Assembly (NCBI GenBank): GCA_012295275.1
Contig: CM022667.1
Coordinates: 10,230,001 to 10,294,000, forward strand
Direction: 5' to 3'
Source of the DNA: Chrysomallon squamiferum
Lineage: Eukaryota > Animalia > Mollusca
Length of the DNA: 64,000 nt
The position numbers and the translations under genes were made by a program. A model generated the notes under the pieces. The model ran no database searches and was not told where the DNA came from. It saw only the letters and a program-made list of their open reading frames with translations. This document shows, in pieces, positions 77 to 63,450 of this stretch; within the stretch, counting starts at the first letter, position 1; every line of letters begins with the position of its first letter.

Positions 77-3000
77 ATATGCTGGAGCGTACTGGTCACT
101 CTGTGAATGGCGGCTCGTCTGTGAATTTTATAGCGTGTTTGAAACAGCTCGTAGATATCTAAGGCCTCCTGTTAATAAGTTACAATATATCAACAGATTG
201 TCAACATTTGTGGACGTATGGGTAATATTTTTTATCCAGTTTTATCAGAGTGCAAATCATGTCCAATACCGTTTGCTGTAAATCATTTATAACAATCTTT
301 TCTGGTATCAAAGTGTATAACTTGATATAAATCAGATTATAACGACGAGGATGATGTTGAAGATTAAGTTCCTGATGACGAATGTGATAATGGTAATGAT
401 TAAGATGATGATTACGATAATCATAACATTGATGATGAAGATATTATGAGGATGATGATGATATTATCTCACTTTATCCCTCCCACAAATGTGATACCGC
501 CCGTCTTCAGCTTTTAGAACTCTGGCAAACTTCATGTAACGAATGTGATCGAAATTGCTTTTGAATCCGAGCTGATAGCTGTCTCGTGCGAAATACTCGA
601 ACTTGTCGACATCAATCCCATTGCTTTTGTTTGCAACTATCTGAAAAACAAAGACACTTATAATTTAATGTTTTGAAATCAAATCTGTTAAAGCGTTTAT
701 AAAACATCAAAATATAATAATAATAATAATAATAATAATAATAATAATAATAATAATAATAATAATAATAATGATGATGATGATTATGATAATAATAAAA
801 ATAATATTAAAAACAACAACAACAACAACAACTATAATATTAATAATAATAATGATAATAATAGTAATAGTAATAATAATAATAAAATCATAATAATAAT
901 AATAATAATAATAATAATAATAATAATAATAATAAATTGTTTATCATGTCTGGATCGATCTATGTTTTCATCTTAATTTAATTCATTAATTATTTATTTA
1001 TTTCATTTATTATTTACAAAAGACTTCTTTCCAAAATAAATGAAATTATTATTTTTAACAAATGCCATAATTCATAGTGATGAGGGGATAAATCAGTGTT
1101 GTTGTACATTAAATATCTAATTGCAAATCTGTCATTGAGGTGACTCCATATTTAAAAAGGAACAAAATAAAAAAGCGTCATAAATCAGAAGAAACGGCAG
1201 CAGTCATATTCATGGGTGACTTCTTTTACTGTTTGAGTTTGTTATTAGTAAAGATTGGTTTCATATTATAAATAATAATATAAGAATATATGGAATTGTA
1301 GATGCCGGTTCCTACTACTCTTCCCAAACCATCCAATATACAATAAAATTAAAATTATCATGTTTATAAATTAAATCATCAGATTATTTTTTACATTATT
1401 ATTATTTATTATTATTATTTGTTAATACTTTTACCCTTTTTTTTGTGATGGTATTTTTTTGTCGTAAAAACATAAATAAAAGTAGCCTTTAATAAAATAT
1501 AATTTATAATTCTGTTTATGATTGCAACAAACTTTGCTATATATTTCATATAATTTAAAACAAAATGAGAGGTACAGCAATAATAAAGATTAAATTATAA
1601 AGCAGCTTTAATTAGAAATAATATAACCGTTTTACCTCAAACAGAAAACGTTTGTTTTCATCCCTGCCAATGTTTTCCCAGTCCTAAGGAGAAAAAGTAA
1701 TAACATTAGAATTAAAACAAAAAACCAATAACAATCATTTATACCATTATTATTTCAGTTGGTACTAAACATTCAGAACAATTCCCTAGTCACAGATGCA
1801 TGTTAATGTCTCACCTGTTTTCGCATATTGTCAGGGAGTCCCTTCATCAGCAGTTTTATGAAATTTTTGTCCTTTTCGTACAGTCCTCGTTTTTCAAATT
1901 CTGGATCAAGTTTGTTTTCTTCAATTAAATGGTCAAACATCATTTCAGTAGCCTCCTCGTGCTGAATCAAAACATGATGACAAAAGGTTTATAGACATTA
2001 CAACAACAATTTTAGAAAAAAAGACTAGAAAGAATATTTACAGAAAAGGCTGAGATTACCTCGACGACAAAAAATATTACAAATCTAAACAGTTAACTAA
2101 GCCATAATTTAAAAATAAAAATAAAATATATCCAAAAATCTGGATTAATTTTATTATTGTTGTAGTTGTTATTATTATTATTATTATTATTATTATTATT
2201 ATTATTATTATTATTTATGAGATCAAATTTAAAGATAAACAATACAAACACTCCATTTTGATTTCTCTGGTCGTATTTTTCGAATGAATGAATGTTCAAA
2301 TAAATGTGAATATGGTCCATGTCCTGCAATAGAATGAAATAAAATAAAATGAAATAAAATAGATAGATAGAAAAAATAAATAAATAAAGAAACATATAAA
2401 CACACGCATCAACAACAACAACAACACTACTACTACTACTACTACTACTACTACTACTACTACTACTATTACTACTACTACTACTAATAATAATACTAAT
2501 AATGATAAATAGATCAATGTATGATTTAAAATACTGTATGAAAATAAACAGAAGCCGTTTAAGTATAATCGGTAACTATGATCTATAAAGAACTTTATCT
2601 TACGTCAAACCTTAAATTCAGTGTGAGCCAGTTCGTAGTTTCAGTAACAAGTATGTGTTGCGCGTAGAACATGGCCAGAGTTTTATTGTGCTGCTGTTTG
2701 TAATAGTAGAACACAGATTTATTACAACAAGAAGAAATATTTCAAATTATTACCCAGGTCGTGGCAAAGCCCAGCGATTTCTACACAAAGTTTATCTTTC
2801 TCACTTATATTCAGATCTTTCTGACTGTCCATTAATGTCTGTATAAAAACCCTAGCCAGATGATATACACTACAAAATAAATTTAAATAAATAAATAAAA
2901 TAATAAATAAATAAATTAGACAGTTAATTAATTTTACTAATAATAGTAATAAAGTATTAAATTAATCATTTAAGTAATACTACTACTACTATTAATAATA

Positions 3001-4471
3001 ATAAATACAACAGCAATGATAATAATAACAACAACAACAACAGAAACAACAACAACACTCTTCAGTTGATTACTTTAGGTAGTAGTACAGTGAGGCTTCT
3101 AAAGTCTTCATATAGTGGTACAGGAAATAATGTAATACTCATTTTGACTTCATAACAAACATTTTGAATGTTACCACTTTACCCCGATAGACAGCACTGA
3201 AAGCTGTATTTTACTGGAACAGATCTTGGAACAGAGACAAAAACCAAGACAAGGAGGTTTTTAGAAGAATATTGATCGGCTGGACCGCATTTGCGAAGCA
3301 AGCACCACGAGAAATCTTGGAACCTGGTTGAATAGACAAATCTACAATTCATCCTATTTCCAACTTCGGAGCTGTCAGTTAAGCAAAATAACAACCCAGC
3401 TTTTCAGAAACAAAGATGGAATCGAGTACATTGATCATCAGCTATGGAGACCGAAAACCAAACATAATGGTAAAAGAAAAGATGGTTAAAGATGTGACTG
3501 TATAGATTAAAAGATTGAAGTGGACCTGGGCAGCACACATAACAGACCAGAAGATAACCGATAAACATCGACTGTCACCTCCATGAAATCTGCAGGGATA
3601 AAGTATATGAGTACCTGAAGGGAACCATCTGGGAGAAAACCATACAAGAGAGGATTATGAGGCTTTCACTCAACAACGGGTCAATTACTAAACGAAAAGA
3701 ACAAAAGCTTGGAAGTATGTAGGATACATTTAGACTATTTCTCCGTATTACCAAAGGTTCGCTGCTTACCCGATGCTGTGTTCAAATCGATTGTGTGAAG
3801 CTGCAGGATAAACAAAGTAAGCCAAGCCTTGTTGTTTTAGAAAACGAAGTCTCTGAAACTGCATCGTATCTATTATCTTTACACTCAGAGGATCTACTTG
3901 AATGCTGCCATGGATCGGGTCATTAAAAATCTGATAATATTGTGCAGACTTCGGTCAAGTATTTATACATTCTTTAAAATATATGTGTATAAATATATGT
4001 GTTTGTTTACTGAATACTTTATTACTGTACTGGTACGTATGTATGCATGTGTGCATGTATGTCTGTCTGTACGTACGTAATAGTGTATGCATGTGTATAT
4101 ATGTATGTATATAAAATACATTTGAAAGATAAATTCGAGATTTGACATTGTAAGTAACTGCAAATTATAACATCTGTAAACAAACAACAACAAGATCAAT
4201 AACAAAAAATATCCCCATATAGGAAAATTATTTTCTTAGTATCCAATTTCATTTACCTTTTTATTGACTCTCCGTTGGCTGTCTCTCCCTGTCTCAGATC
4301 TGAAAAGTAATAATAATAATACATATTTAGAATATTTCTGCTTGTGAAGGTAAACATTAAATAAATAAAAATAACTTACCCGATGCTGTGTTTAAATCGA
4401 TTATGTGAAGCTGCAGGATAAAGAAAGGAAGTCAAACCAAGTTTTAGAAAACGAAGTCTTTGCAACTGCAT
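77..4471 (-). CDS. SAMHD1: SAMHD1-like HD-domain dNTPase, copy A (5' part; continues beyond left edge)
   Basis: GT-AG exons with consistent phases: 4535-4380 (duplicated exon 2, in-frame ATG 4471), 4299-4257 ([14 protein letters not shown]), 3930-3770 (IFNDPIHG...KQQG...HNRFEHSIG), 2869-2754 (...IAGLCHDLG), 2323-2250 (HGPYSHLFE), 1961-1815 (HEEATEMMF), 1683-1636, 640-473 ([14 protein letters not shown]), 168-77 ([12 protein letters not shown]). No stop or frameshift seen. Start codon is inferred. Confidence 0.88.
3230..3690 (+). mobile_element. Decayed RTE-like LINE 3' fragment (intron of copy A)
   Basis: Broken translations [14 protein letters not shown] and [12 protein letters not shown] resemble RTE-type RT C-terminal motifs. 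Confidence 0.6.
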
Positions 4472-63000: not shown

Positions 63001-63450
63001 AGCTCGTAGATATCTAAGGCCTCCTGTTAATAAGTTACAATATATCAACATATTGTCAACATTTGTGGACGTTTGGGTAATATTTTTTATCCAGTTTTAT
63101 CCAGTGCAAATCATGTCCAATACCATTTGCTGTAAATCATTTATAACGATCTTTTCTGGTATCAAAATGTATAACTTGATATAAATCAGATTATAACGAC
63201 GAGGATGATGTTGAAGATTAAGCTCCTGATGACGAATGTGATGATGGTAATGATTAAGATGATGATTACGATAATCATAATATTGATGATGAAGATATTA
63301 TGAGGATGATGATGATATTATCTCACTTTATCCCTCCCACAAATGTGATACCGCCCGTCTTCAGCTTTTAGAACTCTGGCAAACTTCTTGTAACGAATGT
63401 GATCGAAATTGCTTTTGAATCCGAGCAGATAGGTGTCTCGTTCGAAATAC
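60070..63450 (-). pseudogene. SAMHD1: SAMHD1-like pseudogene, copy F (internally deleted paralogue of C)
   Basis: Partial exon 7 (63450-63327), then 63023-62932, 62632-62576, 61787-61608 (10 nt short, frameshift), 61149-61072, 60798-60694, exon 13 from 60518 with donor deleted near 60397, and 60107-60070. At ~63450 exon 7 is fused to intron sequence upstream of exon 2, so exons 2-6 are missing. Confidence 0.9.

Follow-up and report, generated by a model that had tools for sequence, protein, structure and literature searches.

A tandem family of SAMHD1-like genes with no SAM domain detected and altered nucleoside-pocket residues in a 64-kb window of an animal genome

Does a local cluster of SAMHD1-like genes supply extra doses of a standard dNTPase, or have its members been turned to other work? 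The window—the whole stretch of DNA that was analysed, 64 kb from an animal with an AT-rich genome—contains SAM-less SAMHD1-like genes in six tandem copies (A to F), which were mapped exon by exon. Three are open over 14 exons: C (22061..29213, minus strand), D (35118..43791, plus strand), which is open from its own ATG exon, and E (48435..55689, plus strand). Copy A (exons 1–8; 77..4299, minus strand) is open, and its reading frame runs off the left end. The remaining two are pseudogenes. B (9696..18716, plus strand) carries an 18-nt deletion that removes D309–D311 and a 10-nt frameshift in exon 8, and is without its last exon; F (60070..63446, minus strand) has a deletion that joins intron 1 to the middle of exon 7, and a further 10-nt deletion in exon 10. 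Acceptors are AG in all 66 mapped exons and donors GT in 65, the exception being F exon 13, and both signals are present at all 13 mapped exons in each of C, D and E. Homology to SAMHD1 covers the HD domain and the C-lobe in full. A basic exon of 28–49 nt lies upstream of the IFND exon, separated from it by an intron of 319–867 nt, and a 31-nt ATG exon (29633..29663, minus strand) is the candidate first coding exon of C; it ends in Lys at phase 0 and would join in frame to C exon 2.

Several exons stand apart from the copies. A duplicated exon 2 (156 nt, open, with a shifted acceptor) lies upstream of exon 1 of both A (4380..4535, minus strand) and C (29294..29449, minus strand), and a broken orphan exon 2, truncated and with an internal deletion, lies at about 45400..45502 (plus strand). 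An open orphan exon 3 with the HD motif (57056..57171, plus strand) has no exon 4 behind it, and E has a second exon 12, a tandem duplicate of 105 nt that is open with AG/GT intact (54312..54416, plus strand). An Rfam search of the window and a Pfam search of ten intronic or intergenic ORFs gave no matches. An earlier note on this DNA had listed at least six copies, two of them pseudogenes, together with orphan exons, a short basic exon before IFND and no SAM exon, and the mapping bears out each of these. Its statement that the array runs past both ends holds at the left, where the edge cuts through gene A; the right edge cuts only the 5′ region of F (63447..64000, minus strand), which comprises intron-1-like sequence, a candidate ATG exon at 63900 and a CpG-rich block that the end of the window truncates. 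The sole pointer to more copies beyond the window is a set of read-derived variants that match none of the six.

The SAM domain was sought with a profile trained after 6 of 23 rows, a mis-aligned fusion protein among them, had been dropped. Across 3236 six-frame segments of the window the best match had an E-value of 1.4, weaker than all scoring controls; five of the six control pieces scored (E-values of 2.8e-10 to 0.42) and the one missed has 22 residues, so that the scan might overlook a SAM exon of very small size. Loss of this domain is ordinary outside mammals and common in fish and bivalves, and it is dispensable in non-mammalian members: as far as the available descriptions go, the SAM-less C. 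elegans ZK177.8 (PMC10485159) and Rhizophagus SAMHD1 (PMC12042053) still form nucleotide-regulated oligomers. Each of these is a characterised single active dNTPase, and their descriptions, as available, mention neither a tandem family nor loss of Y374, unlike the window copies.

Human SAMHD1 (PDB 7UJN and related) is a homologue of the copies in the HD domain, a single exon giving an E-value of about 1e-19. C and D have one-to-one counterparts of its metal ligands, catalytic histidines and allosteric residues, and exon 1 of the copies ends on the K116 equivalent. The copies differ from it in being without a SAM domain, in the substitutions Y374A/V and Q375K/I/C that every open copy carries, in a chain that stops soon after the C-lobe, and in being multi-copy with pseudogenes.

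A quick tree was built from the six copy models and 34 hand-picked proteins of 379 fetched. Copies A to F form one clade (SH-aLRT 100), in agreement with the lineage-specific expansion proposed in the earlier note; its placement among molluscs in this tree is weak and, together with sequence composition, is the basis for assigning the host clade. When 1.84 billion representatives were searched with a profile, and again in a word search, the matches listed were fish, bivalve, annelid and echinoderm proteins of moderate identity, with no cephalopod among them, and an exon 10 query—a weak test—found no relative among eight candidates. Database listings give many, mostly SAM-less, SAMHD1-like copies per species for teleosts (Labrus, Perca, Pagrus, notothenioids and cyprinids) and for bivalves (Ruditapes and Mytilus). 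These paralogues reach at best 74–78% identity to the window copies on conserved exons, and show recurrent replacement of Y374 by Cys or Leu; they form a separate clade, however, and none has Ala or Val at 374. The contrast with a gene that is single-copy in mammals thus overstates the surprise, since fish and clams commonly have several SAMHD1-like genes. The literature searches made here listed no paper on expansion of the SAMHD1 family.

Are the copies distinct loci? Support was judged from copy-specific letters in sequencing runs, contig depth not being taken as copy number. Four runs from three studies carry letters of B, C, D and E, the deletion junction of F, and apparently letters of a copy from outside the window. 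For most copies this speaks against haplotypic assembly artefacts; A is not confirmed as a locus separate from C. On an artefact account, A with its adjoining spacer and the mini-exon array would come from the other haplotype of the C region, wrongly joined into the assembly. Outside repeats, the divergence between A and C is 2.9% and that between the upstream spacers of B and D 1.8%, and only three of 20 A-only letters occur among the 40 listed of 54 matches in the four runs. Against this, the bodies of B and D (dS of 0.30) are too distant for alleles, and their identity falls right after exon 1, as from unequal crossover. We consider such a mis-join very unlikely, and it would affect at most one of the six copies.

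Active-site residues were compared in human numbering. The metal ligands H167, H206, D207 and D311 are present in A, C, D and E and damaged in the pseudogenes, B having lost D311 and F having lost ligands to its deletion. R164, H210, H215, H233, K312, Y315, R366, Q149 and D319 are kept in A, C and D, where the catalytic and phosphate-binding set is intact except for D218E; D also has H370Y. E carries H233L, Y315T, R366Q and D218H and is predicted to be non-catalytic, and B has H210L. The residues that we take to make up the allosteric GTP/dNTP sites (K116, D137, Q142, R145, R451, K455, N119, R333, R352, K354, H376 and K523) are kept in C, D and E; R372 is lost in B and E.

The nucleoside-binding set (L150, Y374 and Q375) departs from the human one, above all in the pair Y374 and Q375 that grips the base. 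At position 374 the open copies A, C and D and the pseudogene F have Ala, and E has Val, each at least two base changes from Tyr, and the tyrosine is retained solely in B, a pseudogene. Elsewhere loss of Y374 goes with loss of the SAM domain, in 39 of 138 SAM-less proteins versus 1 of 54 SAM-bearing ones, the proteins being non-independent and mostly fish. Q375 is replaced by Lys, Ile or Cys in A, C, D, E and F (Lys in C and D, Ile in A, Cys in E), and A also has L150Q. The earlier note's three intact catalytic cores thus survive as far as the metal ligands, which four copies keep, and not in the nucleoside pocket. In the human enzyme Y374A, Y374F and Y374I are all catalytically dead (PMC5207538), Q375A or Q375N lowers kcat 15–20-fold and R366A lowers activity about 300-fold (PMC11074143), and H233A costs about 300-fold with tetramers intact (PMC7311409). 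These effects were measured in the human protein, and the copies may carry compensating changes. C, D and E retain L150, named in the available text as the main 2′-OH gate of SAMHD1, and this speaks against their having simply switched to ribonucleotides.

The same residues bear on whether the cluster is a dosage expansion of ordinary dNTPases, in which C and D (and A) would deplete dNTPs as vertebrate SAMHD1 does, the substitutions being harmless or offset by other changes. C and D retain every metal, general-acid, phosphate-binding and allosteric residue, and a SAMHD1-like gene marks the oyster herpesvirus response. Position 374 can evidently change: among 251 fetched homologues covering the site there are 196 Tyr, 44 Cys (frequent in fish paralogues), 9 Leu, 1 Phe and 1 Glu. 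None of the 251, however, has Ala or Val, every human substitution cited at 374 is dead, Q375 changes slow the enzyme, and E has lost four further active-site residues. We regard this dosage reading as unlikely. The nucleotide depletion proposed earlier has the conserved metal ligands in its favour and is doubtful because every open copy is substituted at both Y374 and Q375.

Selection was estimated with our own GY94 fit on C, D and E, the only three full open copies. Omega is 0.40 over exons 2–7 (the N-terminal half, 236 codons; p = 1.4e-5 against 1) and 0.90 over exons 8–13 (the C-lobe; p = 0.65 against 1), a value near 1 that relaxation would fit as well as adaptation. Uniform purifying selection, which the earlier note had said would count against it, is not seen. 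The purifying signal in exons 2–7 sits well with a dosage expansion; the other values speak to a further possibility, that the cluster consists of decaying duplicates, made redundant by a canonical SAMHD1 at another genomic site and drifting, with a purifying signal inherited from older branches. Two of the six copies are dead, several exons are orphans, the sole Y374-bearing copy is a pseudogene, and A is separated from C by 15 non-synonymous changes against 3 synonymous ones, the pattern of a copy without constraint. E, on the other hand, has stayed open across about 220 substitutions, with no stops, whereas neutral evolution would be expected to leave about 9 (P about 1e-4, from branch lengths biased by recombination), although the corresponding probabilities for C and D alone (0.025 and 0.18) are weak evidence with the same bias. 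Intact splice signals throughout C, D and E, and an omega of 0.40 among open copies, likewise weigh against decay, which we think improbable as an account of the whole cluster.

The copies have also exchanged sequence. Topology at informative sites switches from 18:14 in exons 2–7 to 1:36 in exons 8–13 (p = 4e-7), and D is a mosaic, E-like in its 5′ part and C-like in its 3′ part. A birth-and-death family consists of duplicates of different ages, with pseudogenes, that evolve independently without homogenisation. The copies here do differ in age (dS of 0.018 to 0.41), form one clade, include two pseudogenes and are for the most part present in independent runs, and to that extent the birth-and-death label proposed for the locus fits; the exchange among copies means that the process is not pure birth-and-death.

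Our preferred reading, held with about even confidence, is a young lineage-specific SAM-less family in which metal and allosteric residues are kept and Y374 and Q375 replaced, C and D probably being weakened or re-targeted triphosphohydrolases and E a probably non-catalytic protein kept by selection. Replacement of both residues in every open copy argues for such enzymes and not for extra standard doses. Copies would be created and destroyed by segmental duplication, both inverted and in tandem, together with unequal crossover within introns rich in microsatellites. Since the allosteric residues are retained, tetramer assembly by GTP and dNTP would persist, and C and D, with their two-metal centre, would remain able to cleave a triphosphate; without Y374 stacking, and with Lys375, ordinary dNTPs would be handled at a lower rate and base or sugar preference would shift. 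E would have a non-catalytic role or modulate the others as a subunit. By analogy, the copies may have an antiviral role.

SAMHD1 is usually treated as one conserved dNTPase, and in these copies a change that abolishes activity in the human enzyme has become fixed. Paralogues that keep the metal centre and allosteric sites amount to a natural experiment on re-specifying the substrate pocket, and they bear on whether non-catalytic SAMHD1 functions are selectable. Site 374 has been replaced time and again in fish paralogues that lack the SAM domain, and nucleotide immunity in invertebrates and fish, a neglected field, could be opened up; if the copies are silent or ordinary, this is one more tandem expansion.

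There are two arrays, each of seven 45-nt exon-1-like units and each with one broken donor. The first (7510..9533, plus strand), with (ATT)n tracts on either side, immediately precedes B exon 1; the second (32049..33981, plus strand) lies upstream of D. The units follow the pattern AG|A ATG ... AAA AG|GT and share one phase; all 14 have AG, 12 have GT and none has an in-frame stop. Codon variants among them are non-synonymous in 12 of 16 cases, and the chance of seeing no stop is 0.42. Judged by their letters, the units, overlooked in the earlier note, are basic, frame-stackable candidate mini-exons. In a speculative and improbable extension the locus would be a diversified immune toolkit, with Ala374/Lys375 paralogues destroying other nucleotides (ribo- or base-modified triphosphates), dead E tuning mixed tetramers, the 45-nt mini-exons being localisation signals spliced combinatorially into a basic N-terminal tail, and loss of Y374 convergent in the expanded SAM-less SAMHD1 of fish and molluscs.

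The 5′ end of A has a CpG-rich block (4571..5149) that recurs in C, D, E and F and in three orphan remnants; it is likely a promoter region and contains an ATG exon-like unit that is frameshifted in A. GAS-like motifs in the blocks of A, C and D were rejected as a sign of inducibility, 20 such sites occurring window-wide. The segment between the second array and D exon 1 (34120..35060), which is absent in B, has (ATT)n flanks and holds one of these blocks.

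The cluster is a real, lineage-specific SAMHD1 family in which tandem expansion and loss of the SAM domain are ordinary; as read from the sequence, its unusual parts appear to be a shared, re-cut nucleoside pocket, a long-lived and probably non-catalytic copy (E), and stackable arrays of candidate mini-exons. The window, with a G+C content of 28% and abundant (ATT)n, (ATAC)n and (TAGA)n tracts, is a piece of an intron-rich animal genome. Using bivalve and fish SAMHD1 proteins from databases as probes, 13 exons were set in copy D (forward strand, 35118..43791) first and then transferred to the remaining copies: A (reverse, 4299..77), B (forward, 9696..18716), C (reverse, 29213..22061), E (forward, 48435..55689), and F (reverse, 63446..60070). 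The IFND exon hits solved structures of SAMHD1 (E about 1e-19), and a 14th, terminal exon is present in C, D, E and F and absent from B. The neighbours A/B and C/D are arranged head to head and B/C tail to tail, and E—next after D—is tail to tail with F. Self-comparison of the window reveals segmental duplications between 1-5832 and 24899-30744 (93%) and between 21298-25494 and 59368-63451 (89%).

The inventory of copies, pseudogenes and orphan exons in the earlier note is correct. Translation is stop-free in C, D and E, and the reading frame of A is open across the 8 exons within the window. B carries H210L (human numbering, assigned via a shark protein aligned to PDB 7UJN), an 18-nt deletion spanning D309-D311, and a 10-nt frameshift, and F is missing the segment between intron 1 and the middle of exon 7, plus 10 nt of exon 10. 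The F deletion junction, also present in an independent run, lies at 63446-63447 on a 5-base match that exon 7 shares with intron 1. Orphans include a broken exon 2 near 45400 and an exon 3 at 57056. E has a second, tandemly duplicated exon 12 (54312-54416), open and with intact splice sites, which is possibly an alternative exon. Extra copies of exon 2 lie upstream of exon 1 in A (4380-4535) and C (29294-29449); in both the acceptor is displaced by 2 nt, giving a symmetric open exon of 156 nt, and these could supply a second allosteric-site segment in frame ahead of exon 1. Intron 2 of B contains a 470-bp imperfect palindrome (10743-11216; 71% self-match) that is MITE-like.

Contigs from four runs in three studies, one of which runs may be the source sample, were placed on 24900-26800, and the listed letters were assigned to copies. 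Exact matches to C across C-specific sites occur in contigs of all four runs; among the listed letters, D-only letters were found in at least two runs, E-only exon-5 letters in at least three, and a B-only exon-5 letter in at least two. The F junction is a loose contig end in run X5. B and D differ with a dS of 0.30 and so are not alleles. The concern that the copies are haplotypic artefacts is thus answered for B through F and persists in part for A, which is the less secure copy since it diverges from C by only 2.9% over 4793 non-repeat positions and just 3 of its 20 A-only letters are among the matches listed (40 of 54); recent duplication, copy-number variation or a mis-joined haplotype could each account for A. 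At 25057 all four runs have a letter unlike that of any window copy, indicating at least one further paralogue outside the window.

A quick tree built from 34 proteins, selected from 379, together with the six copies unites the latter in a single clade on a long branch (SH-aLRT 100), in agreement with the lineage-specific expansion proposed earlier, and places this clade tentatively within molluscs with support of 89. Pairwise dN/dS is 0.36-0.67, apart from A and C, which differ by 15 non-synonymous and 3 synonymous changes. A GY94 fit to C, D and E gives an omega of 0.40 for exons 2-7 (236 codons, p=1.4e-5) versus 0.90 for exons 8-13 (214 codons, p=0.65), so the uniform purifying selection that the earlier note had set against its own reading is not seen: conservation holds for the half that contains the metal centre, and the other half, which contains the substrate-sensing helix, is either relaxed or diversifying. 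Among informative sites in B, C, D and E, exons 2-7 favour BC|DE by 18 to 14 and exons 8-13 favour BE|CD by 36 to 1 (p=4e-7 for the contrast). Because the favoured topology changes, the copies recombine, and the birth-and-death evolution originally proposed holds for the births and deaths and has to be widened to include sequence exchange.

No SAM domain was found with a profile built on 15 vertebrate SAM domains (6 of 23 rows left out), the best of 3236 window segments having an E-value of 1.4. The profile recovered a bivalve SAM that had been kept out of it, both in full (E 2.8e-10) and as four of five fragments (E 5.7e-5 to 0.42), missing a 22-residue piece; with that caveat the absence of SAM exons stands, and the SAM-less call is fair since the full upstream space of A through E is within the window. 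Nor is the absence unusual: PMC10485159 and PMC12042053 describe C. elegans, fly and fungal orthologues without SAM and state that the human enzyme does not need it for dNTPase activity, and no SAM match is seen in 138 of the 192 database proteins that are at least 400 aa long and span both position 374 and the beginning of IFND.

Copies C, D and E retain most of the allosteric residues of SAMHD1. H167, H206, D207 and D311 are retained in A, C, D and E, and R164, H210, H215, H233, K312, Y315 and R366 also in A, C and D, which share D218E (catalytic list from PMC11074143 and PMC7311409). The pocket departs from this pattern. Position 374 is Ala in A, C, D and F and Val in E, Y374 being kept solely by pseudogene B, the earliest branch; at 375 every one of the six copies carries Lys, Ile or Cys in place of Gln, and A additionally has L150Q. 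In the human enzyme, H215 and Y374 sandwich the base and Q375 bonds it, Q375A/N lowers kcat 15-20-fold and R366A about 300-fold (PMC11074143); Y374F, Y374I and Y374A each abolish catalysis (PMC5207538); and L150 with Y374 excludes the ribose 2'-OH, and H233A costs about 300-fold with tetramers still formed (both PMC7311409; also bioRxiv 296624). E further carries H233L, Y315T, R366Q and D218H, yet has 0 stops versus about 9 expected (P about 1e-4; the same test is weak for C and D, P 0.025 and 0.18), and is probably a long-lived, non-catalytic copy. Neither Ala nor Val occurs at 374 in any of 251 database homologues covering the site; Cys (44) and Leu (9) are frequent there in fish SAMHD1-like paralogues. 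Non-Tyr residues occur in 39 of 138 SAM-less versus 1 of 54 SAM-bearing proteins, a comparison shaped by shared ancestry, mostly of fish.

Wrasse, perch, sea bream, icefish, carp and Manila clam each have many SAMHD1-like proteins listed in databases, so SAMHD1 expansion is recurrent; cyprinid proteins are also annotated with a beta/gamma-crystallin fusion (PF00030) and doubled HD domains. Searches of the open literature, at the level of titles and opening lines of abstracts, on SAMHD1 in invertebrates, molluscs, octopus and fish and on its heterotetramers brought up no paper on such paralogue families among the matches listed. Support for an immune role is thin and indirect: in one cluster of oyster cells a SAMHD1-like gene marks the delayed response to herpesvirus (bioRxiv 2026.05.15.723513), octopus mucus contains SAMHD1-like proteins (PMC11431876), a zebrafish ISG paper names SAMHD1 only within a reference, and SAMHD1 is mentioned in none of the 8 papers listed on oysters and poly I.

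Exon 1 is basic, 28-49 nt long, starts in phase 2 and ends at the K116 equivalent; only B and D have their own ATG in it. Upstream of these two copies lie arrays absent from the earlier note, each of seven exon-1-related 45-nt units with (ATT)n introns of 150-370 nt between them (7510-9533 for B, 32049-33981 for D). All 14 units begin with A-ATG, are in phase 2 at both ends and have no in-frame stop, so that a series of six units followed by exons 1-2 is open throughout and would encode a tail of about 31% Lys/Arg; splice flanks are AG in 14 of 14 and GT in 12 of 14. Paired B and D units differ by 0, 0, 1 and 3 bases, and the broken-donor pair by 4. That the units are coding mini-exons nevertheless seems doubtful from these features, since 12 of the 16 codon variants change the amino acid, stops would be absent by chance with a probability of 0.42, truncated units occur (7311, 32453, 33878), and B, behind one array, is a pseudogene. 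In D, moreover, a 0.9-kb segment with a CpG-rich block separates the array from exon 1, an order in which the array would lie upstream of the likely promoter.

This CpG-rich block recurs at the 5' ends of A, C, D, E and F and at three orphan sites (4571-5149, 29480-30050, 34216-34760, 44809-45161, 47304-47727, 58130-58579, 20222-20593, 63715-64000), in the gene's own direction in A, C and F and reversed in D and E, and may either act as a promoter in both directions or be a short repeat element. Upstream of E, 46900-47300 is also CpG-rich; it matches nothing else in the window and has no Pfam or Rfam hit. The block carries a candidate 31-nt ATG exon, which is frameshifted in A and in C is predicted to join exon 2 in frame; F has the block with this candidate and lacks the extra exon 2 and exon 1.
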